From Patescibacteria group bacterium (GTDB lineage Bacteria; Patescibacteriota; Patescibacteriia; JAHIZJ01), in assembly GCA_041661625.1 (NCBI GenBank), contig JBAZUB010000001.1:523504-587503 (forward strand): 64,000 bases of DNA, in the 5' to 3' direction. Under the pieces are notes generated by a model. That model was not told the DNA's origin. It did not search any database and saw only the letters and a list, made by a program, of their open reading frames with translations. The position numbers and the translations under genes are program-made. Positions 12,595-28,931 of this stretch are shown here, piece by piece (the first letter of the stretch is position 1; every line of letters starts with the position of its first letter).

Positions 12595-13089
12595 TTGACT
12601 ATGAGCGCGCTTGATCTCGTTCTCATTACCATGACTACTTTCCTGATGATTGTCGGCTTTTTAGGTACTCTTGTGCCAACGCTGCCGGGATTGCCGTTGC
12701 TCTGGGGCGTGGTCATGATTTATGGCATCACTACTAAGTTTGAAGAAATCGATAAGAATTTTATGATTCTGACGACGTTGCTGGTGGGATTGATTATTCT
12801 GCTTGATTTGATTGCCAGCCTACGTGGCACTCAAAAAATTAAGGCGAGCTTTTGGGGTGCGGCTGGAGCGATAATCGGCGGTGTGGTTGGGGCCAGTTTT
12901 CATTCATTAGCCACGCTGGTTATTATGCCGATTGTCGGCGCCGTCATCGCCGAACTGCTAACCGGCCGTGACGCGATTTATAAAGTCGAAACGCAGAACT
13001 ATCATTTTATCGGCTTTGTCGGGGGTACAATAGTAAGAGTAGCCGTAGGCGTGACCTTGATTGCCATGTTTCTGTCGAAGGTGCTGTAG
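12595..13089 (+). CDS. DUF456-like integral membrane protein
   Basis: Four TM segments; the N-terminal LPGLPLLWG motif is typical of the DUF456 family. Confidence 0.5.
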   Translation: MTMSALDLVLITMTTFLMIVGFLGTLVPTLPGLPLLWGVVMIYGITTKFEEIDKNFMILTTLLVGLIILLDLIASLRGTQKIKASFWGAAGAIIGGVVGASFHSLATLVIMPIVGAVIAELLTGRDAIYKVETQNYHFIGFVGGTIVRVAVGVTLIAMFLSKVL

Positions 13090-13255
13090 GTCTTTTATCA
13101 CGATTCGAGTCTGACCTATTGACAAAATGACAAAAATTTGGTAGCGTTGGGTTAGACATCAAGCGATGAGGCAATAACCGTTTCCATAATAAGCGCACCT
13201 TCCAAGTAGGTCAGTGTGATACGTTCGTTGCCAACCTAGAGAAAGGGGCGAATCC

Positions 13256-13849
13256 ATGAACAATAGAGCGTTGGTAATTCTAGCGGTACTGTTCAGCCAG
13301 TTCTGGGCGTTCAACCCGGCAATGTCAGCTGACACCGAGTCGTCGGCATCAGCCGATACCGATAAATGCTTCGTCAAGCCATCCGACATTGACAAGGCCT
13401 GCATCACCAGAGGTTGGTGTATCCAGGCGGAAAACTTCGCCTTTCGGATTCTCCCGAAGGAGGACATGTCGGTCCAGTTTCTTCAATATCTGCAAACAAC
13501 ACCGGGCAGCCCGAATTTGGAGTTTGTTATCAAGCAGGTGATGGAAAACCCGAATACGCGAACGTTCTCATGTTCAATCCGGCCGTTACCCGCGGTTCAC
13601 GCCATTAACTTCAAATGGAACATCGGGTTAGTTCTCAAATCCGGTGATCGAGTGTGGGCGACAAGCTGGATATACCTGACTAACGGAATCTTTTCCGCCC
13701 ACGAGCCATTCGGGTTACAGTTTGTTCCCGGTGTACAAGGCATGAGTGACTCCGGCTGCTCGTTTGAATTATTTTGCGTTTTTCCCAACCAGACTGAATC
13801 TGGGAAAGAATGGCGCAACGGCCAAGTTTCCGGCCTCGTCATCGAGTGA
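13256..13849 (+). CDS. secreted hypothetical protein (signal peptide, 8 Cys)
   Basis: N-terminal signal LVILAVLFSQFWAFNPAMSA; no homology recognised. Confidence 0.5.
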   Translation: MNNRALVILAVLFSQFWAFNPAMSADTESSASADTDKCFVKPSDIDKACITRGWCIQAENFAFRILPKEDMSVQFLQYLQTTPGSPNLEFVIKQVMENPNTRTFSCSIRPLPAVHAINFKWNIGLVLKSGDRVWATSWIYLTNGIFSAHEPFGLQFVPGVQGMSDSGCSFELFCVFPNQTESGKEWRNGQVSGLVIE

Positions 13850-13947
13850 CATGGGCCAAGAGTGTCCGTGGCATAAACGCAGCGAAGGTAACCTTAGTTG
13901 CCACGGAGGAATGGCGGCCATTGGGATAGCCGCCAAAGGAGGTTCTC

Positions 13948-14241
13948 ATGAGACGGCTTCTGGTTCCCCTGTTCGCGCTGGTTCTGTTGGTCACGCCCAT
14001 GGTCATACCGACCGTCCAGGTCACGACCGATCAGAACAACGCGACGATCATGACCGCCGGCAACGTCAACACGGCGACGGCACCGACGGACATCGGGACA
14101 ACGATCCATCTGGCGAACATCGAGATCACATTCGCACAGGGTGGAAACGCGCAAGCCTGGAACTTGATCTACGAGCTCTGCAGGGCCGGGGTGCCTGGCA
14201 TGTGCGAGCTCTACCAGGACGGTCAGGGTATCCTCTGGTAG
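13948..14241 (+). CDS. small secreted hypothetical protein
   Basis: Perfect SD aaggagg 5 nt upstream of the start; signal peptide LLVPLFALVLLVTPMVIPTVQV. GC-rich region. Confidence 0.5.
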   Translation: MRRLLVPLFALVLLVTPMVIPTVQVTTDQNNATIMTAGNVNTATAPTDIGTTIHLANIEITFAQGGNAQAWNLIYELCRAGVPGMCELYQDGQGILW

Positions 14242-14774
14242 ATCGACGGTTCCGGGGTTCCTGATCTGGTACTCGGGCATCGTATTTCAATCGCAAGGGC
14301 GGATGAAGCACGATGCTCTTTTTTTATTATTATATCGCTTTAGCCTGACTGCTTATTTTACAAAAGTTGGCCCGCTCTTGACATTGTATACAGGTAGTAC
14401 TAAGGTGGAATCAAATTGAATATGTGAGGCGATGAGCTATTGTCTGAATCTGGTCGCTTTCCCTATATAATTGCTAGTCTAAAGGCTTTTATGGAGGGGC
14501 GGACAATAGGGAGCTAGTAGCGAAACCGACACGATTCCACTCGATCATCAGCCTCAATTCGTTGAGGTTTTTGTGTAATATTAGGCATTTTCTCAAGCAT
14601 CCTAGTCTTATCCGAATACAAACCTCGGGTGAGACGGGGTGCTGGAGGGAAACCCGACAGCACCTTGACAACCTGTTTGACAAACATCCAAGTGATAGTA
14701 AAGTTCTGCACAACTGCCGATGGGAATACATCTCAGCGGCCATCCGGTCCGTCCTGATCGAAGGAGGTCTTGTC

Positions 14775-15476
14775 ATGCGACTCATCGGAACACTCATCAT
14801 CCTCACCGTGCTCATCACGAGCGTGGCGGGGGCACAGACGGAGCAGGTCTGGATCAAGGGGAACCCTATTCCCCCAGACACTACTGCTGCGACGCCCTAT
14901 ACGTGGGCCATCGTCGGTGATACCCTGTCGGTGAACGGCTACGTGGCGGCTATCGCACCACCGACGCCGCCGACTCGACGGCCCGACACACCGACTGGCA
15001 ATCTGAGCCAGGAGGCATACGATGCCATGTTCGTAGCCAAGGCTACGGACAAAACCAACTACGCCATCGCGCGAGCCGGGTGTGAAGTGTTTGGAGCGAG
15101 TGATCTAGTGGCCAAGGCCGAGATCATCGACGAAATCACGATCCTGGTAACTTGGGCTGACCAGCCCGACCGCCCGGAGTACGTTCGCATACCGACCCAG
15201 GAAAAAGCCGGCAAGCGTTCCGGGCCAGCACGGCTTCAAGACATCAAGACCGCCTACGAATACGACCTAGCACGCGGTAAGTACCTGCTCATCTACTCGT
15301 CTTCCAGTTTTGCTTCCGTCGGATCAGCCGACTGGCCAGCCTGGAAGGCGGAGATTGAGCGGGCGCGCGCCGGATTCGACAAGCGCACCTGGAATGGCCA
15401 CCTGATCGATCCGATGTCGGCGATGCTCTTCCGAAACCCGGCGACCCTGTCCAAGGTTCGCCGCGTGGCGGGCTGA
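14775..15476 (+). CDS. secreted hypothetical protein
   Basis: SD aaggagg 7 nt upstream of ATG 14775; signal peptide MRLIGTLIILTVLITSVAGAQ; ~62% GC. Confidence 0.5.
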   Translation: MRLIGTLIILTVLITSVAGAQTEQVWIKGNPIPPDTTAATPYTWAIVGDTLSVNGYVAAIAPPTPPTRRPDTPTGNLSQEAYDAMFVAKATDKTNYAIARAGCEVFGASDLVAKAEIIDEITILVTWADQPDRPEYVRIPTQEKAGKRSGPARLQDIKTAYEYDLARGKYLLIYSSSSFASVGSADWPAWKAEIERARAGFDKRTWNGHLIDPMSAMLFRNPATLSKVRRVAG

Positions 15477-15481
15477 CCGCT

Positions 15482-18328
15482 ATGCGCCGCCCAGCAATCA
15501 TCACCGTGGTCTTGCTGGCAATGCTGGCGGGACCGGTACTGGGGGCTAACCAGTCCCCGAAATACCACCAAGGACTGCTGTTCGCGCCCTACAACTGGGC
15601 GCTACAGAACTACAGCAACTTCTGCTTGAAGCTCACCGACCAGGGTAAGACCTACGTGGTCTGGGCCAACGACGAAGGGGACAACGCACCCGACGACGCC
15701 ACCGTGGATCGGTGGCGCTGGTACTGCAAGGAAGGTAGTATCGCCATGTACTTCGTGGATACCCATTCATGGAGTACGGCGGCTGCCTTCGAAGCATACA
15801 GTCTTACGGGGCAGACAGAGCGCAACAATGCGATCACCGCCTATGAGGCGACCGACGACTGGGCACCGGGTGATCTTTGGCCTGGACAGACATCGGATGG
15901 ATATGACATCTGTATCAATCCCACCAAGATATCCTGGCTGCTCCAGTCGGGGCTGAACACAATCGCCATCGTGGACGGTTGCTTCAGTGCTGGATGGATC
16001 GGCACTGGGTTCGCCAACGCCCGGGTTGCCGTCGGTTTCAGTGGCTCAACGGCTGGCAACATATACACCAACACCATGCTCAGCCGTATGAACGGGGAGG
16101 GCGGCGCCAACCTTAGAAGCGCCAGCTCGGCCATCGCTGGAATCGGCAGTGGGCTTACTTACACCGGTAGCGGGGAAACCGTATTCTCCCCGGTGGTTAC
16201 GGATGTCAACCCTGACCCCGGAACACTACTCAATGACGAAAAGACCGACGGTTGGATCGAGTTCGATTCAGCTATGGACACCAATCAAGACGTCGCCACT
16301 CGTGTCCAAGCCAGCGGTTGGGCCTATCTAACCGACTTCTGGTGGTCGGGCGACCACCGGCTGAACTACAAGATCAACCTGCTGCTTCCGGGTGATTTCA
16401 CCATCACTTGCGCAGACTTGACGGATGGCAGTAATGCCATCCTGGACGGCAACCAGAACCCCTATGACACAAACGGACAAGGTCCCAATGGGGACGACTA
16501 CGTCTACAGCCTGGCCAGCGGCTACACTAGCCCGAACACCGCCGCTACCTTCACCGGTGTGTGGGCGTTCCGGGACATAGACGGAATCCACGTTCTTTGG
16601 CTGACGGATCCGGAACTGGGATCGATCAACTTTCAGGTCTGGGGCGGTGAACACCGAGAACAGCTCCTGACAACCGTGCCAGCCGAGGGCGGCGTTCTGC
16701 CGCACTTCTATGAGGTGGTCGTCCAGAGTACGGCCGACTTCCTAGAAGTCGCGGAAAAAGCCAAGGATCCCACGACTGAAACCAGTTCGCGGCCATTTCC
16801 GGTTTCACCGGTACCACCACCGGAGCTGGCCAGCCTTCGCAAGCTGAACCAAACGGTGTCGACCTGGCAACCAACCCCATACACGCCGGAGCTACCACAA
16901 GACCGCTCCACGACAACTGTCCTTCCGGCGTCACACTTCACCTACTACACGTCCCAAGCTAGCTGGGTGACCATCATCCAACCCATCATCAACTACTGGG
17001 CTCAGTGGGGCTGGAACTCGCAGGTGATCGTGGGGTCGAACGACCCTAACGCGGCCAAATCAACATTCCGGGCCGCTTACGACGCGAACGTTGCCGCCGG
17101 GTGTTCCTATCCCCCATTCTGCACGATCGTCGGGGAAGCTAACCAGGGCGACCGACCCGCGGCTAACATCGTTGGGACATTCTACATTCCCGACGAGAAT
17201 CAACAGTGCTACTGGAATAGCTGCGGTTCAGACCTGCAGATGGTCAACTTCTTCGATGAAGGACCCGAGTGTTACTACTCCCGGGTCTACGCTACTACAA
17301 CGCAGGAGCTCAACAACTGCGTCACATCCACACTGCAGTACTACAATGGGCAGTACGTGTCCAGCCCCAGAGCCCTGGCCATCGTTGGCGACCTATCCAG
17401 CATGTGCCACGACGTGCCGGCCCCACGCCTCCTCTTCCAGGAGATCGGCGGGTGGTACACGGGTGCCGGGGTACCTTTCACCCAACTCAACGAAACAAGT
17501 ACGGGCTGCTATGACTACCTTGCTAAGCGCAATATGTTCGTGGCAGCTGTCCAGAGTGGGGTGACCGAGATCATCGGAACCGGCTCGCTGACAACGCGTG
17601 AAATCTGGCCCGGCTTCTTCGCTCAACTATCCATGGGCTCTCCGTTATCGATGTCACTGCTTCCCACGAAGCAGCGGATCGTGCTGGAGTTCCCGGGATG
17701 CGACATGGCCGACGGGGACCGCAACAATCCCACCTACTACCCGCCGCTCACCAAACGGTGGATGGTGAACGATCCCGCGGCCGGCGCATCAGCCGTGCTC
17801 GAGCTGTCTCATTCCCGCGGCGGATCCCAAGCCTTCCACCACCGACTAGCCCGGGAGTACTTCAGCGAAAGGATTTCTCCCGGACATTGGTGTGCACAGG
17901 AGGTCTACCAGACCGCAATCAAACGACTCTGGAAGACCGAGTCCATGCGCACCTATCTGAAGCTGGCTATGGCCTATGGTTTTCCCATTCCACTGCACGA
18001 CTTCCTTAGCCCGGCCGGCATGCCCGACTTCCAACCCCTGCCGGACAAAGCCGACCTGCAGCTGACCAACGCTCCAAATCCTGGCCGGACCACGGAGCTG
18101 CGCTACGACCTACCGGGTATGGCGCGTGTATCCTTGACCATCTACGGCGTCTCCGGCCAGCGCGTCCGAACTCTGGTGACACCGAACGTCATCCAGAGCC
18201 CCGGATCATACAGCTTGACCTGGGACGGCCAGAATGACAACGGCGCCCGCGCTCAGGCCGGTGTCTACTTCGTTCGATTGGAATTGGATGGGCGGATCGT
18301 AACATCGCACAAGGTTACGCTCCTCTAG
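15482..18328 (+). CDS. large secreted protein with C-terminal T9SS-type (Por/FlgD-Ig-like) sorting domain
   Basis: Signal peptide. The last ~85 aa (LQLTNAPNPGRTTELRYDLPGMARVSLTIYGVSGQRVRTLV...SLTWDGQNDNGARAQAGVYFVRLELDGRIVTSHKVTLL) match the TIGR04183-type C-terminal sorting domain consensus. ~60% GC. Confidence 0.65.
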   Translation: MRRPAIITVVLLAMLAGPVLGANQSPKYHQGLLFAPYNWALQNYSNFCLKLTDQGKTYVVWANDEGDNAPDDATVDRWRWYCKEGSIAMYFVDTHSWSTAAAFEAYSLTGQTERNNAITAYEATDDWAPGDLWPGQTSDGYDICINPTKISWLLQSGLNTIAIVDGCFSAGWIGTGFANARVAVGFSGSTAGNIYTNTMLSRMNGEGGANLRSASSAIAGIGSGLTYTGSGETVFSPVVTDVNPDPGTLLNDEKTDGWIEFDSAMDTNQDVATRVQASGWAYLTDFWWSGDHRLNYKINLLLPGDFTITCADLTDGSNAILDGNQNPYDTNGQGPNGDDYVYSLASGYTSPNTAATFTGVWAFRDIDGIHVLWLTDPELGSINFQVWGGEHREQLLTTVPAEGGVLPHFYEVVVQSTADFLEVAEKAKDPTTETSSRPFPVSPVPPPELASLRKLNQTVSTWQPTPYTPELPQDRSTTTVLPASHFTYYTSQASWVTIIQPIINYWAQWGWNSQVIVGSNDPNAAKSTFRAAYDANVAAGCSYPPFCTIVGEANQGDRPAANIVGTFYIPDENQQCYWNSCGSDLQMVNFFDEGPECYYSRVYATTTQELNNCVTSTLQYYNGQYVSSPRALAIVGDLSSMCHDVPAPRLLFQEIGGWYTGAGVPFTQLNETSTGCYDYLAKRNMFVAAVQSGVTEIIGTGSLTTREIWPGFFAQLSMGSPLSMSLLPTKQRIVLEFPGCDMADGDRNNPTYYPPLTKRWMVNDPAAGASAVLELSHSRGGSQAFHHRLAREYFSERISPGHWCAQEVYQTAIKRLWKTESMRTYLKLAMAYGFPIPLHDFLSPAGMPDFQPLPDKADLQLTNAPNPGRTTELRYDLPGMARVSLTIYGVSGQRVRTLVTPNVIQSPGSYSLTWDGQNDNGARAQAGVYFVRLELDGRIVTSHKVTLL

Positions 18329-18339
18329 CCCTCCACCAG

Positions 18340-18395
18340 ATCGAACCCTCAGCCAGTGCCTGTGCTTAGTCTGCCCTCGAGACTAACGCACAGGC
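18340..18395 (+). terminator. long hairpin terminator
   Basis: cagtgcctgtgcttagtct...agactaacgcacaggcac, a ~17-bp stem. Confidence 0.4.
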
Positions 18396-18449
18396 ACCAC
18401 ATCTGAGTGTTTGATTATTAACCCCACTAAATGGGGAGAGGAAACGACT

Positions 18450-18644
18450 ATGCAAAAACTGCAAATCATTGGCCTAGGAAGTGGCCTGCTATTGGCGACG
18501 TTATTTGTGGTAGTAGCTGGTTGGCTGACACAGCCCAAACCGGCTGAAGCCAGAACTGAAATTACGTACGGACAACTGAAATTGTGTTACCACGATTGTG
18601 GCAATGATCACGACTGCTTAGCTCGCTGCTTAGCGAAGAACTAG
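18450..18644 (+). CDS. Cys-rich secreted peptide paralog 1 (signal peptide + C-x3-C-x6-C-x3-C core)
   Basis: SD ggagaggaa; signal with AEA cleavage motif; core LKLCYHDCGNDHDCLARCLAKN. Confidence 0.55.
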   Translation: MQKLQIIGLGSGLLLATLFVVVAGWLTQPKPAEARTEITYGQLKLCYHDCGNDHDCLARCLAKN

Positions 18645-18706
18645 CATTAATAGTTATTGAACTATTTACACGTAATCACCCTTAGGGGGGGTCGAGGAAA
18701 TAACTT

Positions 18707-18904
18707 ATGACAAGAAAGCGTCTTATCAGCCTAGGGTTTGGCTTGCTGGTTTCGGCCATATTTGTGGTCGCAGCGGGTGTATTTTTCCAGCCCAAACTGG
18801 CGGAAGCATCAAATAGAATGACTATAGGTCGGATTAAGTATTGTTACCACGAATGCGGCAACGATCAAGCCTGCCTGGATCGATGTCTAGCTAAGGATCA
18901 GTAA
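18707..18904 (+). CDS. Cys-rich secreted peptide paralog 2
   Basis: SD gaggaaa; signal ...KLAEA; core IKYCYHECGNDQACLDRCLAKDQ. Confidence 0.55.
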   Translation: MTRKRLISLGFGLLVSAIFVVAAGVFFQPKLAEASNRMTIGRIKYCYHECGNDQACLDRCLAKDQ

Positions 18905-18980
18905 ATATATTATCGGTACAGTACCGGTTTAAATATATCAGTGCTAATTATTTATCTCATATAGAGAAAAGGAATGGTGT

Positions 18981-19199
18981 ATGTCAAAGATACGTTTGCT
19001 CGGCATGGCCATTGGCCTGCTCGTCGTATCCCTCTTCGTCGCCGGTATTGGCGTGATGGCCAAACCTAAACCGGCTGAAGCGACCTGGGGTAGGCTAAAG
19101 TATTGTTACGAACAGTGCGGCAATAATTCTGACTGCATTGCACGGTGTATGGGCAAAACTCAAAATGCCAGCCAAGAGGGCGGCGGCTCAGACTGGTAG
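18981..19199 (+). CDS. Cys-rich secreted peptide paralog 3
   Basis: SD aaaggaatgg; signal ...KPAEA; core LKYCYEQCGNNSDCIARCMGK plus tail. Confidence 0.55.
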   Translation: MSKIRLLGMAIGLLVVSLFVAGIGVMAKPKPAEATWGRLKYCYEQCGNNSDCIARCMGKTQNASQEGGGSDW

Positions 19200-19212
19200 G
19201 GTGAATTAACCG

Positions 19213-19262
19213 AAAATAAACCGTCCAACTCCCGGTCGGGTGCCGGGTAAGGGCGGTTTTTT
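19213..19262 (+). terminator. rho-independent terminator
   Basis: cccggtcgggtgccggg and an outer stem, followed by ggcggtttttt. Confidence 0.5.
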
Positions 19263-19379
19263 AGTTTACAATAATAATTTTCTTGCCGGATTGATAATAA
19301 TCTTGTACAATATGTGGGTAATTATCGTTAGTTTCTGAAAATTTTCTTATTTTCAAAGTCTGTCTGTAAACCACCAGTT

Positions 19380-22061
19380 ATGTATCTCGAAAAACTCGAA
19401 ATCCAAGGCTTCAAGTCATTCGCCAACCGAGTATCAATGCAATTCAACCGGGGGATCTGCGCGATTGTCGGCCCTAATGGTTCGGGAAAATCCAACGTGG
19501 CCGACGCGGTGCGCTGGGTGATGGGCGAGCAGAGTTTGAAACTGCTGCGCGGTAAAAAGTCCGAAGACGTGATTTTTTCCGGTTCGGATAAGAAAGCTCG
19601 CTTAGGGCTAGCCGAGGTCTCTTTGCATATCAACAACGAGGACAATACTATGCCGATCGACTACCCACAGGTGGTCATCACTCGCCGGGTGTTCCGATCG
19701 GGTGAAAATGAGTACTTATTGAACAATTCCAAGGTCCGACTGCAGGATATAATTCTATTGCTCGCCAAATCCAACTTCGGCCAGCGCAGTTATTCGGTGA
19801 TCGGCCAGGGTATGATTGAATCCGTGCTGACTTCATCACCCCAGGAACGGAAAGAGTTTTTTGATGAAGCCGCCGGCGTGCGCCAATTCCAGATCAAGAA
19901 AGAACAGGCGCAACAGAAACTGGAGCACACTCGAGAGAATCTGCGCCAAGGCGAAATGCTGATGCAGGAAATCGAACCGCGGCTGCGTTCACTCACCCGC
20001 CAGGTCAAACGCCTGGAGCGGCGCGAGACGATCGAACAAGACTTACGCTTGGTACAGAAGGAATACTTCGCCGGGCTGTGGCGGGACATATCCGGCCAGT
20101 TGAGCGAGTTGGATGGTCAGCAGTCAGCCACCAACCAAAGACTGCGGTCGGCTACTAGCGAGCTGCGCGCTGTTCAAACCCAGCTGGAAAAGATCGAGAG
20201 CGAGAGTTCCCGCGAGGATGCTTTCCGCCAATTGCAAAAAGAATACAACCGCTTACTCGACCAAAAAAACACCCTGCTGCAAGACCAAGCCGTACTCAAG
20301 GGCCGCCTGGAAGTCGAAGCCCATCAAGCCGGTGAGACAAATCGGGTCTGGCTGTCAAAACAGGCCGAACAGATCGACCGCCGGATCAAAGAAGTATGTG
20401 ATGATCTAGCACCGATCAATGACCAGCTTAGCGCCGCTCAAACCGCCCTGGAAACCAAGCGAAGCGAACAGGCCGTGGTGGTGACAAAGTTCGAAGAATT
20501 AGAACGCGGTTTGCTGTTGGCTAAGGAGCGCATGGAAACCAGCAAGCCTATTTCGGTAAAAGAGATCCACGACCATCTCAAGGATATCGAGACACGTCAA
20601 GCAAAATTCATAGAGGCGCTCAATGCCGCCCAGACGGTGGAGGATATCGGACGTATCAAAAAGCACGCCCAGGAAATATTCCGCAGTCTGAGCCAGTATT
20701 TAACCGAGTTGAGCCGGTCAGCGCCCGCTTCCGGTACCGATGAAGTAATACGCTTACAACACGAGCTGACCAACTTCTTGAAGAGCCGCGATAGCCTGGT
20801 CAATGAGATCAATGACTGGATCGTCAAAGTACGTATGCTGGAAGACAAGAAAGCCTTATTGATCGAACATCAGAATGAACTGGAACAGGAATTAAATCGT
20901 TTACGACGCGAACTGGAATTGTCCGAAAGCAGTTCCAAACAACCGGCTGAATCGCGCGCCGCTGCCGCCAAAGAGAACCAGAGCCTAAATCAGAGCATCG
21001 AAACCCTAGATCGTGATTTGAAATCGTCTAGAATCAAGATCGAGCAATTCAACCAGGTCGAGCAGCAGAAAAAAGAAGAGCTGTTTGCCCTGCAGAAACA
21101 GTTCCGTGACCGGCAGAATACTCTCAACGCGGTGACCCAGGAATCAAACGAACTGCGGGTCAAACAAGCCCGCCTGGAAACCCGCCGCGACGACCTCGAT
21201 CGGGAAATGCGCGCCGACTTGCCCGAAACATTGTTAATCGAAATACAAAAAGACTTTATAAATATTATCAGCGAATCGCCCGCTTCCGTATTGCTAGAAC
21301 GAATCACCAGCATCAAGCATCAGATCGAGCTGATCGGCGGCATCGACGAGAACGTCAGCTCGGAATATGAGCAGACCAACGAGCGCTTTGAGTTCCTATC
21401 CAAACAGGCCGAGGATCTGCACCAAGCCATTGAGTCATTGGACAAAGGCATCGCCGAGCTGGACGAACAAATCAAGGATCAGTTCGACGAATCGTTTCAA
21501 AAGATCAATACCGAGTTCACCCGGTACTTCAAGATGCTGTTCAAGGGCGGTTCGGCTAAATTAATTTTGAACAGAGAAGAGCTTTTTGAAGACGCCGATG
21601 AGGACGACGAAGATGATGAATTCGATGGCGAAGAAGACGCCACAGAAGAAGCGCCGAAACAACCGAAGAAGCATTCGATTGGCAAAGTCGTCACCGGCAT
21701 TGAAATCCAAGCCATTCCGCCGGGTAAACGGGTCAGCAGCATCAATGTGCTGTCCGGCGGTGAGAAGTCGCTCACTTCCATCGCGCTGATTTGCGCGATC
21801 ATTGCTAATAATCCATCGCCTTTCGTGATCCTGGACGAAGTGGACGCCGCCTTGGACGAATCGAATTCGATTAAGTTCTCGAACATCCTAACCGAGCTGG
21901 CTCACAAGACGCAGTTCATTACCATCACCCACAATCGCGCCACCATGCAACAGGCTTCAATTCTCTACGGCGTTACCATGGGTGCGGACAGCGTGTCGAA
22001 ACTCTTGTCGGTGAAAATGGAAGAGGCCGAAGCGGTCATCAACCAACACGGGAATCGGTAA
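19380..22061 (+). CDS. smc: chromosome segregation protein SMC (short form, 893 aa)
   Basis: Walker A GPNGSGKSN, long coiled coils, hinge, C-terminal signature LSGGEKSLTSIAL and Walker B ILDEVDAALD. Confidence 0.9.
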   Translation: MYLEKLEIQGFKSFANRVSMQFNRGICAIVGPNGSGKSNVADAVRWVMGEQSLKLLRGKKSEDVIFSGSDKKARLGLAEVSLHINNEDNTMPIDYPQVVITRRVFRSGENEYLLNNSKVRLQDIILLLAKSNFGQRSYSVIGQGMIESVLTSSPQERKEFFDEAAGVRQFQIKKEQAQQKLEHTRENLRQGEMLMQEIEPRLRSLTRQVKRLERRETIEQDLRLVQKEYFAGLWRDISGQLSELDGQQSATNQRLRSATSELRAVQTQLEKIESESSREDAFRQLQKEYNRLLDQKNTLLQDQAVLKGRLEVEAHQAGETNRVWLSKQAEQIDRRIKEVCDDLAPINDQLSAAQTALETKRSEQAVVVTKFEELERGLLLAKERMETSKPISVKEIHDHLKDIETRQAKFIEALNAAQTVEDIGRIKKHAQEIFRSLSQYLTELSRSAPASGTDEVIRLQHELTNFLKSRDSLVNEINDWIVKVRMLEDKKALLIEHQNELEQELNRLRRELELSESSSKQPAESRAAAAKENQSLNQSIETLDRDLKSSRIKIEQFNQVEQQKKEELFALQKQFRDRQNTLNAVTQESNELRVKQARLETRRDDLDREMRADLPETLLIEIQKDFINIISESPASVLLERITSIKHQIELIGGIDENVSSEYEQTNERFEFLSKQAEDLHQAIESLDKGIAELDEQIKDQFDESFQKINTEFTRYFKMLFKGGSAKLILNREELFEDADEDDEDDEFDGEEDATEEAPKQPKKHSIGKVVTGIEIQAIPPGKRVSSINVLSGGEKSLTSIALICAIIANNPSPFVILDEVDAALDESNSIKFSNILTELAHKTQFITITHNRATMQQASILYGVTMGADSVSKLLSVKMEEAEAVINQHGNR

Positions 22062-22094
22062 ACTGGTTTCAACCGCCCCCAATTAATTCCGTCA

Positions 22095-22190
22095 TTGCGA
22101 CCCCGCTCAGCGGGGGAAGCAATCCCCATGAAGGTTCACCAAACAATGGGATTGCCGCGCTCGCTGACTCGCTCGCAATGACTGGAATGG
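22095..22190. repeat. complex palindromic intergenic element
   Basis: Outer 11-bp inverted repeat cgtcattgcga/tcgcaatgacg encloses a ccccgctcagcgggg hairpin and a gcaatccc/gggattgc stem. Confidence 0.4.
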
Positions 22191-22273
22191 AAGTGGTTGT
22201 CATGATATAAATAGAGCAAGGCGCGCCCCACCTGGAAACGCGCTTTTTCGTTCTTTACTTTTATCGTAGCGTG

Positions 22274-22642
22274 CTACTGGGTTGGGGCGGCTATCTTTTT
22301 TGGTTTTGACGTCCAAGCGCCCACTATAGTAATAACCGCGATAATCATCTGCTGAACTAATATCGTCACGGCCGTGTTTGTAGACGTAAATTCATCGACC
22401 CGGGCAACCAGATAGAATATGCCCATGATAATCGAAAGGCCAATCACGTAACGGCGCCCTAGCAGTGCAGAAATGAAAAGTATTATCGATAAGATGGTGC
22501 CTAGAATGGTAATTATGTGCTGCCCGAGCGATAACCCCTTGTCTCCGGCGGTTGTGTACACTGTGATCATCCCCCAGACATTAATCGCAGCCAAAATTAG
22601 CAGCAGCGCGATTCCAATCCAACGACGTAGTTTGTGCGACAT
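22274..22642 (-). CDS. small integral membrane protein (3-4 TM)
   Basis: Hydrophobic 122 aa starting MSHKLRRWIGIALLLILAAINVW. Confidence 0.4.
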   Translation of the reverse strand: MSHKLRRWIGIALLLILAAINVWGMITVYTTAGDKGLSLGQHIITILGTILSIILFISALLGRRYVIGLSIIMGIFYLVARVDEFTSTNTAVTILVQQMIIAVITIVGAWTSKPKKIAAPTQ

Positions 22643-22724
22643 GGATGTTTGCCTTTTATTCAAGGTTAATATATAAACTGTACACTCGATTTTGGACCAA
22701 ATCAATAAATCAACATGCCTAATG

Positions 22725-22753
22725 TTGACAAAAACAGCCTGTTTCTGTAATAT
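22725..22753 (+). promoter_or_regulatory. sigma70-type promoter upstream of rpsP
   Basis: TTGACA -17 nt- TAATAT; ~120-nt leader to the rpsP ATG. Confidence 0.5.
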
Positions 22754-22876
22754 CACCATACCATCAATCGGGTTACGAAGGGCAAGTTATAAGTTACGCG
22801 TGTAACGAAAGGCTTGAAACTCTAAGTCACCAAAGTTCCGAACTTAAATCTTGTCATCATAACCTACGACTATTCT

Positions 22877-23347
22877 ATGTTAGCAATTAGACTCTCACCA
22901 ACCGGCAAGAAAGGGCAGAAATTCTTCCGCGTCATCGTCTCCGAAAAAACCAAGGATGTTTTCGGCGACTACATTGAACTGCTCGGCAACTACAATCCGC
23001 ACCCGAATCCGGCTCAGGCGACACTCAAAGCCGAACGGATAAAATATTGGCTGTCTCAAGGAGCTCAAGCCTCGCCCACCGTGCACAATCTTTTGGTAGA
23101 TCAAAAAATAATTGACGAACCGAAAGTGACCAGCTGGAAGCCCAAGAAGAAAGAGGTCAGCCCCGAAGAGGCCACCAAGGCAGCCACCGCTTCCGAGCCA
23201 GCCAAAGCTGAATCGATCGTAGAAGCCACATCAGCACCGGCCGAGCCAGCCCCTGAAGTGACTCCCACGCCTGAACCGATTAAACCCGCGCCAGCCGCCG
23301 AAACTGCGCCGACGCCAGCGCCAGCTGAGCCGAAACCAGCGGAATAG
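22877..23347 (+). CDS. rpsP: 30S ribosomal protein S16 with Ala/Pro/Glu-rich C-terminal extension
   Basis: AIRLSPTGKKGQKFFRVIVSEK...ELLGNYNPHP...KAERIKYWLSQGAQAS matches S16; low-complexity PAPE tail. Confidence 0.85.
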   Translation: MLAIRLSPTGKKGQKFFRVIVSEKTKDVFGDYIELLGNYNPHPNPAQATLKAERIKYWLSQGAQASPTVHNLLVDQKIIDEPKVTSWKPKKKEVSPEEATKAATASEPAKAESIVEATSAPAEPAPEVTPTPEPIKPAPAAETAPTPAPAEPKPAE

Positions 23348-23411
23348 TTCCATCCAAATTTATCATCGATACATCCAGCTCCTACGGGGGCTGGGTTTCG
23401 TTTATCGGGGG

Positions 23412-23440
23412 TTGACAACTATACCCCACACACATATACT
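23412..23440 (+). promoter_or_regulatory. strong sigma70-type promoter driving the RT leader and gene
   Basis: TTGACA -17 nt- TATACT, a near-consensus match. Confidence 0.55.
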
Positions 23441-23446
23441 GGTGCT

Positions 23447-23689
23447 GCCCTACAATACTAACCTTTGGCCCTATTGATGGGTCCTCGGCCCGGGGAGATG
23501 CGACAGGCACTGGTTATGAAGAGGGCTGGCGTACCTTGCAGATGCGCTCCGAGGGGAGCGTTTTCGTACGAGGCGAATCGCAACGCTTCGCGTTTGACCT
23601 GAAGCCTAGGGAGACAGTCGCAGAGGAGCAATCCTTCCCAACGTCTCCCTTCATATTTCTTGATCCTTTCATCATAAGGAGTGTACCCG
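23447..23689 (+). ncRNA. candidate structured non-coding leader / template RNA associated with the reverse transcriptase
   Basis: ~240 nt between the predicted TSS and the RT ATG with no ORF and multiple stable hairpins (agggagac...gtctccct 8 bp; gcgaa-tcgcaacgc-ttcgc; GC-rich stems around cggcccgggg). Ends with SD aaggag. Confidence 0.35.
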
Positions 23690-24793
23690 ATGCTCCGTAG
23701 CAGCCAGAGGTACTATTCGTTCGTCAACCCGCGCCAGTTTGCGCTCCCCTCTGACCCGCGTGTTGTGATGCGGGTGTCGGGCTGTGCAGCACTCCTCAAG
23801 GAGGTGCGGATCGGCCAGGCATTTCTTGCATCGATCCTGACAAATCCTGATCTTCACTGGCATCGCCGCATCGTTACAGGTGGGCGCAGTTCGCGCAAGG
23901 GAAAACAGCGCATTTGTTTCGTGGCAAGCGGCGAGCTCCGGTGGTACCAGAACAGACTGTGGAACCTCATGCGCTATATCCTTTCCGTCCGGAACGGACA
24001 TCTGCTCATCGCGCAAGAGCCGTGCCACTTGTATCGGAACATCAGAACGACCCAGTCGAGTGAGGGAACCGATTTCCCGGCAACAGCATACAACACCGGG
24101 TGCAATGTCATTCGCAACGCCCGATGGCACCGCCACAATCAGTCAAGCTGGTGTCTTGACATCTCGGGTGCATTCGCATCCATCCGCATGAAGCACTTGT
24201 ACCGCTTTCTGCTCCGCAAGCAGTTCCCGCCCGATCTAGCATGGATTATCTGCCGGATGTTCACCTATAACGGCGGACTTCCGCAGGGTGGCCCGTACTC
24301 ACCCTTCATCTACAACCTGCTCATGCAGCGGTTTGATGAAACTGTTGCGGCTGCGATCGGCGCTCCGACGAAAACTGTGACATTCCATCGAGCCAAACTG
24401 GAGGGATTTCCATACAGCGGTCCGATATATACGCGATACGGTGACGACCTCTGCTTCTCCCACCCGGATGAAGAATTCCCTGATGCGCTCAAGGGAACCA
24501 TCGACCGAGTGATAAGAGAACACCACCTGATTCTCAACGCGACAAAAACGCGCGAGGGTAGACATGGGATCATGGAACTTCCTGGCGTGGTGATTGTACA
24601 CGGACGCGTACGGCCACCTTCGGCTTATGTCACCCGTGTATGTACGGCTGCCGACCAAGGAAACCTCACCTCCATTCAGCGCTGCGGACACCGCGGCTAC
24701 CTCCTCACGTTCGGGCGGGCGGGCAGACTCCGATGCCTACGGCAACGGATTAACCTGCGATCCAAGCCGCGCTACGATCAACTTCCGTTCTAA
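23690..24793 (+). CDS. reverse transcriptase (RT domain only; retron/DRT-like, not DGR, no maturase/endonuclease)
   Basis: RT motifs in order: RICFVASGELRWYQNRLWNLMRYIL (motif 1/2-like), NARWH...WCLDISGAFASI (motif 3, catalytic D), LPQGGPYSPFIYNLL (motif 4, QGxxxSP), YTRYGDDLCFS (motif 5, YxDD), LILNATKTREG (motif 6). SD aaggag 8 nt upstream. Own terminator downstream. Confidence 0.8.
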   Translation: MLRSSQRYYSFVNPRQFALPSDPRVVMRVSGCAALLKEVRIGQAFLASILTNPDLHWHRRIVTGGRSSRKGKQRICFVASGELRWYQNRLWNLMRYILSVRNGHLLIAQEPCHLYRNIRTTQSSEGTDFPATAYNTGCNVIRNARWHRHNQSSWCLDISGAFASIRMKHLYRFLLRKQFPPDLAWIICRMFTYNGGLPQGGPYSPFIYNLLMQRFDETVAAAIGAPTKTVTFHRAKLEGFPYSGPIYTRYGDDLCFSHPDEEFPDALKGTIDRVIREHHLILNATKTREGRHGIMELPGVVIVHGRVRPPSAYVTRVCTAADQGNLTSIQRCGHRGYLLTFGRAGRLRCLRQRINLRSKPRYDQLPF

Positions 24794-24806
24794 TCACGCT
24801 TTCAGC

Positions 24807-24832
24807 AACCGGCCGACACAGACCGGTTTTTC
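24807..24832 (+). terminator. rho-independent terminator of the RT gene
   Basis: aaccgg-ccgacacaga-ccggtt followed by ttttt. Confidence 0.55.
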
Positions 24833-25004
24833 TATTGATAACCCAGCCATTTGTGACTAGTTGATTTGGGTGGATTTGACACTACGCCAGAACATTTTAT
24901 AATGAAGCTACTGATGCCAGGCTGTCGTGCCTCTCTCTCCGAGGTTAACACGTCGAAACAGCATCTCCGGCTATCAGCTCGTAACAATTAACCGCAACGA
25001 TGTA

Positions 25005-25343
25005 ATGGCTAAAGAACAAGATCAAGAGTTTGTCGAGTATTGCGTGAAGGGCCTCGTCGACCGTCCGGAAGACGTCACGACCGATCGCATGGTTGATGAA
25101 ATGGGAGTGTTGATCACTCTCAAAGTCAATCCAGAAGATTTGGGCCAGGTGATCGGCCGCCAAGGCCAGACCGCCAAAGCGCTTCGCACGCTGCTCCGGG
25201 TCGTCGGTGCCAAGCACCACGCCCGAGTGAACCTCAAGATCTATGAACCTGAAGGTCACCGTAAGAGCAAGATGATGGAAGAGGCGCCGCAGGAGACGCA
25301 ACCAACCGCGGTTGACGCCGATATGGACGATCTGAAACTATAA
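25005..25343 (+). CDS. KH-domain RNA-binding protein (YlqC/UPF0109-like)
   Basis: LGQVIGRQGQTAKALRTLLRVVG is the KH GxxG core; position between rpsP and trmD is typical. Confidence 0.6.
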   Translation: MAKEQDQEFVEYCVKGLVDRPEDVTTDRMVDEMGVLITLKVNPEDLGQVIGRQGQTAKALRTLLRVVGAKHHARVNLKIYEPEGHRKSKMMEEAPQETQPTAVDADMDDLKL

Positions 25344-25408
25344 CTAGCAGAGGTCAGAAATCGGAAGTTAGAAATCAGAAACCATGTTCCTGATAACGAG
25401 AGGACAAC

Positions 25409-25440
25409 AGCCGCTGGCTTAACTGGCGGTTTTTGTTTTT
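25409..25440 (+). terminator. rho-independent terminator
   Basis: ccgctgg-cttaa-ctggcgg followed by tttttgttttttt. Confidence 0.5.
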
Positions 25441-25486
25441 TTATCGTGAGGACAATTTGCTTGTTTTATGGTACAATTCGGCCAGC

Positions 25487-25597
25487 GATTTGTTGAGAAA
25501 TGTAAAATTGTACAATTCAAAATTCAAAACATGTGATTCCCCGCTGGGCGGGGTTACATTCATTTTGCATTTTGCATTTTACATTTTGAATTGCTTC
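25487..25597. repeat. inverted-repeat / microsatellite element (cattttg units) with central CCCCGCNNNGCGGGG hairpin
   Basis: aattcaaaattcaaaacatg ... ccccgctgggcgggg ... cattttgcattttgcattttacattttgaatt; the two arms are reverse complements. Confidence 0.45.
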
Positions 25598-25598
25598 C

Positions 25599-26270
25599 AT
25601 GCGCTTCGACATCCTGACCACGTTTCCCGATATTTTTGTATCATATTTCAACACCAGCATAATCAACCGCGCCCGGAAGAGCGGCCGAATTAATATAGTC
25701 ATACACGACCTGCGGGATTATACGACCGACAGACACCGCACCACCGACGACCGTCCCTATGGCGGCGGGCCCGGCATGGTGATGAAAGTAGAACCGGTTT
25801 TCAAGGCTTTGAAAAAACTGCGCGCCGTGGCACCGCACAAACTTAAGGATACGAAAGTTATTCTGCTCACACCTCAGGGACGGACTTTTAATCAGCCTAT
25901 CGCCCGCCAATACTCCGAACTCAAACGATTGATCTTTATCTGCGGTCATTATGAGGGTTTCGACGAACGCATTCGCTCACTGGTGGATGAACAGCTGTCG
26001 ATCGGCGACTACGTGCTGACCGGAGGCGAGCTAGGCGCCATGGTCGTAGTGGACGCCGTCAGCCGCTTGCTACCTGGCGTGCTGGGTGATGAAACCTCCA
26101 GCCATGACGAGTCTTTTTCTCAAGATTTAAAGACCCTGGAATACCCCCACTACACCCGCCCGGAAGTATTCCGCCGCCAACGGGTACCGAAGATTTTATT
26201 GTCAGGTGACCATTCAGCCATTGCCAACTGGCGCAAAGCAAATCAGCGTATAAAAAAGCCACGGCCATGA
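25599..26270 (+). CDS. trmD: tRNA (guanine37-N1)-methyltransferase
   Basis: MRFDILTTFPDIF...GGGPGMVMK...SIGDYVLTGGEL is the SPOUT/TrmD signature. Confidence 0.9.
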   Translation: MRFDILTTFPDIFVSYFNTSIINRARKSGRINIVIHDLRDYTTDRHRTTDDRPYGGGPGMVMKVEPVFKALKKLRAVAPHKLKDTKVILLTPQGRTFNQPIARQYSELKRLIFICGHYEGFDERIRSLVDEQLSIGDYVLTGGELGAMVVVDAVSRLLPGVLGDETSSHDESFSQDLKTLEYPHYTRPEVFRRQRVPKILLSGDHSAIANWRKANQRIKKPRP

Positions 26271-26863
26271 AGACCGAAATCGAAGCTAAATTCTTAGACA
26301 TTGATCCGGGCGCGATACGAAATACATTGAAGCAAATTGGAGCACGCTGCGTTTACTCTGAACAATTACAAAAGAGAAAGATTTTCGATTCCCCCGATCA
26401 TCACATGGAGCGGGTTGGCGGCTGTGTTTGGGTTCGTGAAGAAAATGGCAAAATCACATTGGCCTATAAGCAACTTAATAACCGTACACTACAAGGCACA
26501 AAAGAAGTTTCGGTACGGGTAGATGATTTTGATCGTGCTTGTGAATTTCTGCTGGATATTGGATTGGTTCTAAGATCCTACCAGGAAACCCGCCGCGAGC
26601 AGTGGTTATACCAATCGGTTGAGATTACCATTGACACCTGGCCCTGGATACCCACTTTTTTGGAAATCGAGGCACCTACCGAAGTAGAAGTTCGCAAAAC
26701 TGCCGCAGCTTTAGGTTTGGAGTGGGAACGAGCCTTGTTTGGCAGTGTCGAAATCGCGTACCAGCAAAATTATGATGTTACGGAGCAAGAAGTTGATTCT
26801 TGGCCAAGTGCCACTTTCACCGATATTCCTCAGGATTTGCTCAAAAAGCGAAAAAGAAAATAA
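26267..26863 (+). CDS. CYTH-domain protein (class IV adenylate cyclase / triphosphatase fold)
   Basis: N-terminal EIEAKF motif (EXEXK) and acidic strand pattern of CYTH; 4-nt overlap with trmD. Confidence 0.55.
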   Translation: MKTEIEAKFLDIDPGAIRNTLKQIGARCVYSEQLQKRKIFDSPDHHMERVGGCVWVREENGKITLAYKQLNNRTLQGTKEVSVRVDDFDRACEFLLDIGLVLRSYQETRREQWLYQSVEITIDTWPWIPTFLEIEAPTEVEVRKTAAALGLEWERALFGSVEIAYQQNYDVTEQEVDSWPSATFTDIPQDLLKKRKRK

Positions 26864-26866
26864 CTC

Positions 26867-28195
26867 ATGGATGTTCAATCCGAAAACTTGTCCGCATCAC
26901 CCGCCACCCGCACCCATCGTTACGTGAGCATTTTGAGATATCGAAACTTCCTCAAGCTCTGGGGCGCCCAGGCCAGTTCTAAGCTGGCCGAGAATGTACT
27001 AAACTTCAGCCTTGTGATACTGATCTACCAGCTGACCCATTCCAGTTTTATGGTCAGTCTGTTGTTGGTGCTGATTGGCGTACCGCCCATCCTACTATCC
27101 GCGGCAGCGGGCGTGGTTGCCGACACCCATAATCGCAAAACAATCATGTTTTTATCAAACCTGACTCGTTTTTTTCTGGTTGTCATGGCGATCATATTTC
27201 ATGAACAAGCCTGGGTACTGTTGGGAGTCGCCTTTATCCTGTCGGTGCTGGCTCAATTTTTCAGTCCGGCCGAAGTTTCCTCGATTCCCACGCTGGTCGA
27301 CAAGGAGCATTTATTCACGGCTAACAGCATTTACTCATTTACCAGCTATACCACTTTTCTAATCGGCTATACGATTGCCGGCCCGCTGCTTCAGCGCTGG
27401 CACTCCACCAACCTATTTATTTGCGTCATGGTGCTTTACGGCATTGCGTCATTACTGTCGGGCTGGCTGCCTCCCCTTGTTGAGCATCTGCGCGACGCCG
27501 CCCAACGCAGTCTGCGGCTGATTGACTGGGCCGACTTCCGTCATCGCCTGACCGAAGGCATGAGAATAATTCTTACCAACCGGGTCATCCGATTCGTGAT
27601 GATCCAGATGGCTATTGTATTCAGCATCCAGCGCGGCTTCTTATCTATGGCACCGGCCTTCGCTGAAAACTTTTTGAAGTTTAACCTCGACAAGATCAGC
27701 GTTTATTTAATTCTACCCGTCGGCGTCGGCGCGCTTGCGGGCGTCTTGTTAGCCAACACTATCAAGCATCGCGTCGCCAAGAGCCAGATGATCACCGGCG
27801 GCATGATTATCAACGGGCTGGCCCTGCTCTCTTTGGCTTTTTGGACGGCTGGACATTCGGCTCTAACGGCGTTGGGTGTATCAATTTCCCAGGAAGCATT
27901 CGCTCCGATTATTGTATCTATTCTGGCATTTCTATCCGGCTTCGCAGATCCGTTTATTATCGTCTCGGTTCAGACCACCCTCCAGGAACGCACCGAGCCG
28001 GCTGACCGCGGACGGGTCTTCGGCGGATTGTATACCTTTATGAACCTAGCCGGGCTGGCTCCGATTTTGATCATTGGCGCCATTACCAACCTAGTTAATC
28101 TCAACGTTGTCGTCTTGATTCTGGGACTGACTGTTATGACCGCGGCCGTCTGGGGTATCTTCTTCTACCGTCGGTATGGTTTGGGCGCAGAATAG
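26867..28195 (+). CDS. MFS transporter (12 TM)
   Basis: Hydropathy with 12 predicted TM helices, 442 aa, conserved loop 2-3 region. Confidence 0.75.
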   Translation: MDVQSENLSASPATRTHRYVSILRYRNFLKLWGAQASSKLAENVLNFSLVILIYQLTHSSFMVSLLLVLIGVPPILLSAAAGVVADTHNRKTIMFLSNLTRFFLVVMAIIFHEQAWVLLGVAFILSVLAQFFSPAEVSSIPTLVDKEHLFTANSIYSFTSYTTFLIGYTIAGPLLQRWHSTNLFICVMVLYGIASLLSGWLPPLVEHLRDAAQRSLRLIDWADFRHRLTEGMRIILTNRVIRFVMIQMAIVFSIQRGFLSMAPAFAENFLKFNLDKISVYLILPVGVGALAGVLLANTIKHRVAKSQMITGGMIINGLALLSLAFWTAGHSALTALGVSISQEAFAPIIVSILAFLSGFADPFIIVSVQTTLQERTEPADRGRVFGGLYTFMNLAGLAPILIIGAITNLVNLNVVVLILGLTVMTAAVWGIFFYRRYGLGAE

Positions 28196-28228
28196 CCATT
28201 TACTGCCATTTTCCGTAGATTCCATCTT

Positions 28229-28259
28229 GACCCCCCCCTATTGGTAATGTGTATAATGA
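28229..28259 (+). promoter_or_regulatory. sigma70-type promoter with extended -10
   Basis: TTGACC -18 nt- TGtgTATAAT; followed by a ~190-nt leader. Confidence 0.45.
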
Positions 28260-28451
28260 CGGTCGTGGGCGATTCGTCAGTTCTTGGTGAATTGAATCGT
28301 TCCTTACATCCGCAAAGTTATCTGTAGCCAAACGACTGACGTTGGCATGGAGAACAAATGGGAAGGAGGTAGCAAAAAGACTTTCCATGTTCACTCGCCA
28401 CACTACCAGCCACTGTGCAACACGAAACCTAAAAGGAGACCAAGAGAAGTT

Positions 28452-28829
28452 ATGAAACTGAAGAATCTCTGTGTTCTACTACTCTTCGCGGTGATCGCGA
28501 TCGGAGTCGTCGCGTCCGTTGCTCAGGCTGACACGGCACGAGTCGCCATCAAGGGACCCTCGTATGGCGTCAGTTACACGGTTCAACCTTGGCAGAACGG
28601 GGTGCTAAGGGCTCAAAACACCAACGTGACTCTGGTTAATGGATATCGCAATGTCATTTTCTACAACATTCCTCCCGGGTGTGGTTACATCGGAAATGCC
28701 TGGCTGAACGGCGTAGGAATCGAGTCTCACACTTGGCCATCAAAGTGCGTCAGTGGAACCACCCAACTCGGTTGTCTGCAGTTCAATGGAGCGGGCGAAC
28801 CGGAACCATGGAGCGGCAGCTGTCCGTAA
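28452..28829 (+). CDS. secreted Cys-containing hypothetical protein (125 aa)
   Basis: SD aaggag 7 nt upstream; signal peptide MKLKNLCVLLLFAVIAIGVVASVAQA. Confidence 0.5.
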   Translation: MKLKNLCVLLLFAVIAIGVVASVAQADTARVAIKGPSYGVSYTVQPWQNGVLRAQNTNVTLVNGYRNVIFYNIPPGCGYIGNAWLNGVGIESHTWPSKCVSGTTQLGCLQFNGAGEPEPWSGSCP

Positions 28830-28931
28830 CCACCGACCAGCGCTCTGACGACTAACAAAACTGTCGTCAGAGCGATTTCTTACTATCAACCAAGTCATAT
28901 ACATTTAGTATTAATACCTAAAATACAAGAC

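Follow-up and report, generated by a model that had tools for sequence, protein, structure and literature searches.

Three tandem small genes for putative exported hairpin peptides beside a conserved surface-protein module in Patescibacteria

What is encoded by three short Cys-rich open reading frames (ORFs) standing in tandem just in front of smc in a member of the Patescibacteria? These bacteria (the candidate phyla radiation, CPR) carry very small genomes, and the machinery of their surface and of their contact with hosts is for the most part uncharacterized. The window analyzed here is a 64-kb stretch taken from a 697-kb contig of an uncultured Patescibacteria metagenome-assembled genome, and the ORFs lie on its + strand between the gene for a large secreted protein with a C25-like region and smc. 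The favored reading is that they encode exported, probably cleaved, disulfide-stapled hairpin peptides accompanying a surface-protein module, and taken as a whole this joint reading is given an even chance. The family itself is genuine, unnamed and confined to a narrow Patescibacteria clade of about eight genomes.

The tandem genes and their family

The three genes and their immediate signals are arranged as follows, with lengths in amino acids (aa) or nucleotides (nt).

18433..18444, + strand: Shine-Dalgarno (SD) sequence of gene 1, GGGGAGAGGAAA
18450..18644, + strand: gene 1, 64-aa precursor; signal/anchor segment 18450-18551 (residues 1-34), ending PKPAEA
18552-18641, + strand: predicted mature part of gene 1, 30 aa, RTEITYGQLKLCYHDCGNDHDCLARCLAKN
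18694-18699, + strand: SD of gene 2, GAGGAA
18707..18904, + strand: gene 2, 65-aa precursor; signal/anchor segment 18707-18808
18809-18901, + strand: predicted mature part of gene 2, 31 aa, SNRMTIGRIKYCYHECGNDQACLDRCLAKDQ
18969-18974, + strand: SD of gene 3, AAGGAA
18981..19199, + strand: gene 3, 72-aa precursor; signal/anchor segment 18981-19082
19083-19196, + strand: predicted mature part of gene 3, 38 aa, TWGRLKYCYEQCGNNSDCIARCMGKTQNASQEGGGSDW, with a disordered C-terminal tail
19218..19262, + strand: intrinsic-terminator-like stem-loop and U-run, folding energy (dG) -28, z-score (z) -3.4, 118 nt before smc

The likely start codons are the ATGs at 18450, 18707 and 18981, each with a purine-rich SD 5-8 nt upstream; 18411 is merely an in-frame TTG upstream of gene 1 that lacks an SD. 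A sequence-only reading of this DNA had placed three small genes here, each with its own SD and with a terminator after the third, and all of these elements are found, the ORFs at exactly the coordinates it gave and the terminator-like stem-loop closing the triplet. In relatives the SD is GAAAGGGGGTGA, spaced from the start as in the window genes. A sigma-70 promoter scan gives no + strand promoter ahead of gene 1. The deposited annotation assigns the locus tags WC734_02680 (hypothetical protein) to gene 2 and WC734_02685 to gene 3.

The three proteins are 51-55% identical in pairs and align internally without gaps except for a 4-residue deletion in gene 3. Their N-terminal halves share the order M-x-K/R, 22 uncharged residues and (Q/K)PK(P/L)AEA, followed by 0-4 variable residues and the mature core T-x-G-x-[LI]-K-x-C-Y-x-x-C-G-N-[DN]-x-x-C-[LI]-x-R-C-[LM]-x-K. 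The Cys framework is C-x3-C-x5-C-x3-C in all three (C46, C50, C56 and C60 in gene 1), so that the two CX3C pairs of the sequence-only reading stand while its spacer of six residues is corrected to five. The DNA of the Cys core forms an in-frame direct repeat of three 60-nt copies with 70% identity, which is the sole repeat family in 13000-30000, and a six-frame scan of the whole window confines the motif C-x3-C...C-x3-C to the three ORFs. The mature peptides carry net charges of 0, +1 and 0.

Comparison of the window paralogues gives a proportion of synonymous differences (pS) of 0.62-0.78 and of nonsynonymous differences (pN) of 0.27-0.31, and for homologues from other genomes the values are 0.65-0.85 and 0.14-0.50. 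Because pS is close to saturation while pN is much lower, the three ORFs are old duplicates under frame-specific purifying selection, and the rapid diversification proposed at first is contradicted. The locus is 100% identical in an independent Logan assembly (SRR18595301). A view of the ORFs as chance or decaying repeats rather than genes could draw on gene 1, which matches no NCBI-sourced record and is found in Logan only, and on the unannotated copies of several relatives. Every copy is intact, however, the excess of pS over pN is tied to the frame, the SD sites are conserved and the motif occurs in this slot alone, and this view is effectively refuted.

Compared with Pfam and NCBIfam, the three peptides fall into no family, and weak EACC1 and Squash matches (E 0.06-0.18) were rejected as noise. 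A profile of the triplet run against 5.8 billion proteins in a word-indexed search finds only the three proteins themselves, and HMMER run exhaustively over 1.84 billion cluster representatives yields three further matches, all artefacts. Two of them (P0004 and P0005) are long, non-homologous, beta-rich repeat proteins whose score is summed over a repeated 'TCTDECGNSSDC' motif, and the third (P0006) is a non-homologous junk tandem repeat. The unit T-C-T-D-E/D-C-G-N-S-S-x-C of P0004 and P0005 reaches E 1e-12 to 1e-6 purely from the summing of 7-12 repeats, a caution about short Cys-rich profiles. Scans of GTDB genomes and JGI metagenomes with the back-translated triplet pattern find nothing, a contig scan seeded by smc finds Paraclostridium only, and a literature search on Cys-rich secreted peptides in Patescibacteria gives nothing relevant. 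The peptides had been taken for an unrecognized family, and no Pfam, NCBIfam or large-scale database family contains them.

Homologues were located through the closest smc homologues (61-67% identity) by reading the syntenic DNA on their contigs. Seven genome groups conserve the order from orotidine monophosphate decarboxylase on to a ~240-aa protein, a ~930-1000-aa C25-like protein, a slot, smc, rpsP, a KH protein, trmD and a major facilitator superfamily transporter. The slot holds 1-3 similarly built small ORFs, mostly unannotated, in 7/7 genome groups, and conservation in relatives, on which the sequence-only reading depended, is thereby observed: the homologous ORFs are intact and occupy the same slot in every one of the seven related genomes with the C25-like gene. 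The copies found in the relatives, under their working labels, are these.

L005: 1 copy, C-x3-C-x8-C-x4-C
L007/L006 and L017: 3 copies, 6 Cys, C-x7-C-x4-C-x2/3-CC-x3-C
L008/L009: 1 copy, 46 aa, C-x5-C, with a textbook 24-aa signal peptide
L010: 1 copy, C-x3-C-x10-C-x3-C
L012: 1 copy, 6 Cys
L013: 1 copy, 6 Cys

The family thus has 2, 4 or 6 Cys residues and a copy number of 1-3. A metagenome scan with the 6-Cys subgroup finds two contigs only, that of L012 and the new L017. Alignment A4, composed of 11 family members from the window and relatives, is invariant at the initiator Met, at position -1 (Ala) of the A/V-x-A site and at the G and K residues of [ST]WGx[IL]K, and the Cys following this last motif is nearly invariant. 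The A4 profile searched against the 5.8 billion proteins retrieves just these proteins and near-identical variants. Several members have no gene call in the deposited assemblies (L005 7582-7791; L008 6387-6527; L012 6405-6614; L013 7581-7793), and because of this protein-database searches undercount the family. The whole block is missing from L004, a relative without the C25-like gene, and from the more distant relatives L014 and L015 (smc 47-51% identical). Paralogues within a genome are 49-55% identical, compared with 18-40% between the window paralogues and those of any other genome. Because the paralogues of one genome are each other's closest relatives, the two triplications appear either to be independent or to have had their copies homogenized within each lineage.

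Export segment and predicted fold

The n-regions MQK, MTRKR and MSKIR of genes 1-3 precede the 22 uncharged residues, and the layout of a basic N terminus, a hydrophobic stretch and A/V-x-A recurs in 11/11 family members. The c-region reads P-K-P/L-A-E-A in the three window genes, with Ala at -1 invariant and A or V at -3 in all 11 homologues, a conservation that favors the signal peptide with an AxA site originally suggested. Neither a lipobox Cys nor a twin-arginine consensus is visible by eye. This layout points to export of the precursors through Sec, and cleavage probably takes place after A/V-x-A by signal peptidase I, whose recognition is suggested because positions -3 and -1 are kept across otherwise highly divergent linkers.

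The length of the hydrophobic stretch weighs against this reading, being 20-23 residues in 10/11 members, which is long for a signal peptide and enough to span a bilayer, compared with 10-18 residues in the two upstream secreted proteins. It makes an uncleaved anchor a serious rival, in which the products would be single-pass N-in/C-out membrane mini-proteins with the disulfide hairpin tethered at the cell surface, and might hold in place or regulate a partner in the membrane or at the surface, much like small membrane regulators of the MgrB kind. The AlphaFold model, with residues 3-27 as a single continuous helix, and a nearly invariant Gly within the hydrophobic segment are both in keeping with an anchor. 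The Ala at -1 and the A/V at -3 are nevertheless kept in 11/11 members, alongside a c-region Pro, and would be pointless in an uncleaved linker, the h-region of the L009 member has just 16 residues, and between the closest pairs the mature part evolves more slowly than the N-terminal segment. Retention of the segment is therefore regarded as a real possibility that falls well short of an even chance.

AlphaFold2, given the 3-sequence alignment as input, models gene 1 with helices at 3-27, 40-50 and 54-63, the first two joined by a low-confidence linker (28-39) and the last two by a G-N-D turn; the predicted local distance difference test (pLDDT) score in the core is 82-85. The model of the mature gene 3 peptide likewise shows a helix, a GNN turn and a helix with pLDDT about 90, leaving the C-terminal tail disordered. 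The mature core is thus predicted to be a helix-turn-helix hairpin, as the sequence-only reading had supposed, and two nested disulfides, C1-C4 and C2-C3, would brace it. Foldseek searches with the models return nothing significant, the buckwheat alpha-hairpinin BWI-2c appearing at E 3.7; all scores are below usual significance, as expected at about 40 residues, and the enrichment among the weak structural matches agrees with the helical-hairpin guess. No DsbA/VKOR-type oxidoreductase is encoded within the 64-kb window.

The upstream module and the role of the peptides

The wider neighborhood is one of housekeeping genes (gyrA, nusB, rnc, DUF456, smc, rpsP and trmD). Within it the small genes belong to a conserved linkage that the sequence-only reading overlooked, a module in which a c-di-GMP-II-class riboswitch is followed in turn by the genes for a ~240-aa secreted protein and a ~950-aa C25-like/FlgD-Ig protein, and then by a hairpin, the small gene(s), a terminator and smc. 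Its upstream elements in the window are as follows.

14416..14540, + strand: putative c-di-GMP-II-class riboswitch aptamer (Rfam RF01786, clan CL00127)
14550-14569, + strand: terminator-like hairpin directly after the aptamer
14775..15476, + strand: first module gene, secreted hypothetical protein, 233 aa, signal peptide MRLIGTLIILTVLITSVAGA
15482..18328, + strand: C25-like/FlgD-Ig secreted protein, 948 aa
18356..18397, + strand: GC-rich hairpin just 3' of the C25-like stop, dG -41.2 kcal/mol, z -8.7, no U-tract

With 53.5 bits (E 5e-9) the aptamer at 14416-14540 stands precisely at the gathering score, and it lies about 200 nt before the gene for the 233-aa protein. A match to c-di-GMP-II-GAG (RF03169, of the same clan) with 40-45 bits occurs at the equivalent place in 5/6 module-carrying relatives scanned. 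To our knowledge the ligand of this variant is not established.

L005 3613-3727: RF03169 match
L007 2947-3057: RF03169 match
L010 2323-2429: RF03169 match
L012 2230-2342: RF03169 match
L013 3375-3492: RF03169 match

Homologous genes for proteins of ~230-255 aa stand upstream of the C25-like gene in relatives, and the C25-like gene directly precedes the small gene(s) in 7/7 related genomes. A region of the 948-aa protein weakly resembles Peptidase_C25 (E 4e-6), and the protein has a domain of the FlgD-Ig/Por_Secre_tail type at its C terminus; PDB sequence searches with the protein and with its family profile match the FlgD-Ig C terminus only. The family alignment (A5) contains one invariant Cys (C740, in EFPGCD), and the position matched by eye to the gingipain GHG motif is occupied by T, N, I, A or S and never by His. 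Because the presumed GHG-motif position holds no His, catalytic activity is doubtful, and the protein may be a pseudo-peptidase or work through another catalytic arrangement. The L007 gene is broken into two ORFs, of 492 aa and 475 aa.

A hairpin equivalent to that at 18356-18397 follows the C25-like gene in all relatives, in the form of a canonical U-tailed terminator in L012 and L013; in L007 and L005 its U-rich tail is shorter or interrupted. It is likely to be a transcript boundary or an attenuation/stability element between the large and the small genes. No small membrane-protein gene is present between gene 3 and smc. Genes for a transporter, immunity, a kinase, a radical S-adenosylmethionine (radical-SAM) enzyme, a glycosyltransferase or other modification are absent within about 10 kb and are not adjacent in any relative.

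The mechanism that would join these observations starts with insertion of the precursor N-in/C-out through Sec by its basic N terminus and hydrophobic segment. Signal peptidase I would most likely cut after A/V-x-A, which is AEA in this genome, releasing a roughly neutral 30-38-aa peptide whose [ST]WGx[IL]K-C core would fold extracellularly into a helix-turn-helix hairpin. Nested disulfides C1-C4 and C2-C3 would cross-brace this hairpin to give a mini-protein of the alpha-hairpinin or twin-CX3C type. A conserved extracellular module would end, on its 3' side, in the small genes, which contribute 1-3 peptides after the C25-like/FlgD-Ig surface protein, and the peptides may be stable binding partners or modulators that are associated with this module at the cell surface and would be functionally coupled to it. 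A binding or modulating role of this kind is favored because of how strictly the peptides co-occur with the C25-like gene, their neutral charge, the purifying selection and the absence of accessory genes for bacteriocins or for peptides made on the ribosome and modified after translation (RiPPs). The peptides are not thought to be diffusible toxins or pheromones.

A bacteriocin or signaling role had been the first suggestion. A life attached to host cells is presumed for Patescibacteria and would suit Sec-dependent antimicrobial or host-directed peptides of a bacteriocin- or toxin-like kind, with tandem copies broadening the target range. The products are small and tandemly amplified, the three-copy amplification seemingly independent in two lineages, they are predicted to be exported and Cys-stapled, and their Cys motif falls within the definition of the antimicrobial alpha-hairpinins of plants, C-x3-C-x4-20-C-x3-C (PMC11591084). 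The neighbors, however, are smc, rpsP and the surface module, with no immunity gene, ATP-binding cassette (ABC) transporter, peptidase-containing ABC transporter (PCAT) or accessory gene nearby; the locus lies in a conserved housekeeping neighborhood and not in a mobile island; the mature peptides, at a net charge of -2 to +1, range from neutral to slightly acidic, in contrast to cationic bacteriocins; and selection is purifying, not diversifying. An antimicrobial or host-directed function is consequently considered unlikely.

The precursors, short and rich in Cys, might also be those of a peptide modified after translation (a sactipeptide, a ranthipeptide or a RiPP resembling the glycocins) or of a quorum-sensing pheromone; gene 3 has an N-N-S sequon in its loop, and a helical hairpin with two nested disulfides is the form of the bacterial glycocins (PMC12457901). 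There is no conservation of the sequon, however, and no radical-SAM, glycosyltransferase, C39 peptidase-transporter or sensor kinase gene is adjacent in the window or relatives, the nearest radical-SAM gene lying 25 kb away in another cluster. The hydrophobic Sec-type N terminus resembles neither a RiPP nor a double-Gly leader, and precursors of this type are very improbable here.

Returning to the surface-module reading, a bolder form of it would make the peptides an undescribed bacterial class of Sec-exported stapled alpha-hairpin mini-proteins, serving as small ligand, adaptor or effector of a surface module under c-di-GMP-class riboswitch control for host attachment or manipulation. Such a class, which we hold to be doubtful, would be convergent with plant alpha-hairpinins and mitochondrial twin-CX3C proteins and specific to one host-dependent Patescibacteria lineage, and the number of copies (1 to 3) as well as the framework of Cys residues (2/4/6) would be tuned independently per lineage.

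Orphan exported mini-protein families are very common in metagenomes, and the value of the finding is moderate. The most useful lead is the riboswitch-headed module, by which a concrete conserved extracellular unit is defined (a riboswitch, two secreted proteins and 1-3 mini-proteins with predicted stapling) whose small components are mostly overlooked by annotation pipelines. If cleaved and disulfide-bonded, the peptides would be rare bacterial examples of the alpha-hairpinin or twin-CX3C architecture, and at 30-38 aa they would be chemically accessible as synthetic probes for a partner protein.

Other features of the window are listed here.

23681-24793, + strand: reverse transcriptase, 370 aa, Pfam RVT_1 E 4e-15, between rpsP and trmD
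30109-31725, + strand: 16S rRNA gene, 1617 nt compared with a 1533-position model
36012-37631 and 37635-39173, + strand: adjacent pair of paralogous genes (539 and 512 aa), both with a He_PIG/Big_9 Ig-like domain
42035-46846, + strand: cluster of an extracytoplasmic function (ECF)-type sigma factor, a DUF5667 protein, a radical-SAM enzyme and a 668-aa beta-propeller protein

The reverse transcriptase has as its best NCBIfam match the retron St85 enzyme, at 90 bits and below the cutoff of that model, and none is found between rpsP and trmD in the relatives examined. A link between this gene, 4.5 kb away, and the peptides through a diversity-generating retroelement was rejected, there being no template/variable (TR/VR) repeats and the enzyme being retron-like. 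The 16S rRNA gene is followed by ~2.2 kb (31726-33928) with ORFs at 31815-32303 and 32071-33078 and then by tRNA-Ile/Phe/Pro. The 64-kb window contains no 23S rRNA gene, and for that reason the rRNA genes are seemingly unlinked or interrupted. The pair at 36012-39173 is probably another tandem duplication of surface proteins. In the ECF sigma/radical-SAM cluster, which is unlinked to the peptides, the DUF5667 protein is possibly an anti-sigma factor.

Comparison with known systems

Plant alpha-hairpinins (EcAMP1, MBP-1, BWI-2c and the vicilin-buried peptides) are likewise helix-loop-helix peptides of 30-40 aa with two nested disulfides, which in the window peptides are predicted, and they exist in 4-Cys and 6-Cys variants as does the window family. 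Their 4-Cys motif is defined as C-x3-C-x4-20-C-x3-C (PMC11591084), a pattern shared by the three window genes (x5) and L010 (x10) and departed from by L005, L009 and the 6-Cys relatives. BWI-2c and a vicilin-leader hairpin are among the weak structural matches, below significance, and no sequence homology is detectable in Pfam, NCBIfam or large-scale searches. Alpha-hairpinins are plant-made and excised from vicilin or multi-module precursors, whereas the bacterial peptides each have their own Sec signal, a very short loop in the window (5 residues) and no cationic character, and the Cys framework varies within the family (C-x3-C-x8-C-x4-C, C-x5-C, six Cys). The resemblance is most likely convergent.

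The small Tims (Tim8/9/10/13), twin-CX3C proteins of the mitochondrial intermembrane space, give match scores below significance. They are eukaryotic hexameric chaperones imported via Mia40, with a spacer between the CX3C pairs longer than five residues. MgrB-type regulators are shorter than 75 aa and combine an N-terminal transmembrane helix with a short external Cys-containing tail. Their size and layout are similar to those of the window precursors, but homology is absent, no sensor kinase is adjacent here and the conserved AxA argues for cleavage.

Sec-dependent class II bacteriocins are cationic and paired with an immunity gene, whereas the window peptides have a net charge of about 0 and no immunity gene. 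Enterocin P and enterocin Gr17 are likewise small peptides with a Sec signal and no dedicated leader (PMC6700250). Glycocins (sublancin, glycocin F and thermoglycocin) are secreted bacterial peptides with two helices held by two nested disulfides (PMC12457901), but they involve a double-Gly-type leader, a C39 peptidase-transporter, an S/O-glycosyltransferase and immunity genes, none of which occurs at the window locus. The peptides form a new, unnamed, clade-restricted family with a predicted architecture already known from plant alpha-hairpinins, small Tims and, loosely, glycocins (PMC12457901), and the family is set apart from all three by the lack of detectable homology and by its Sec-type precursor.

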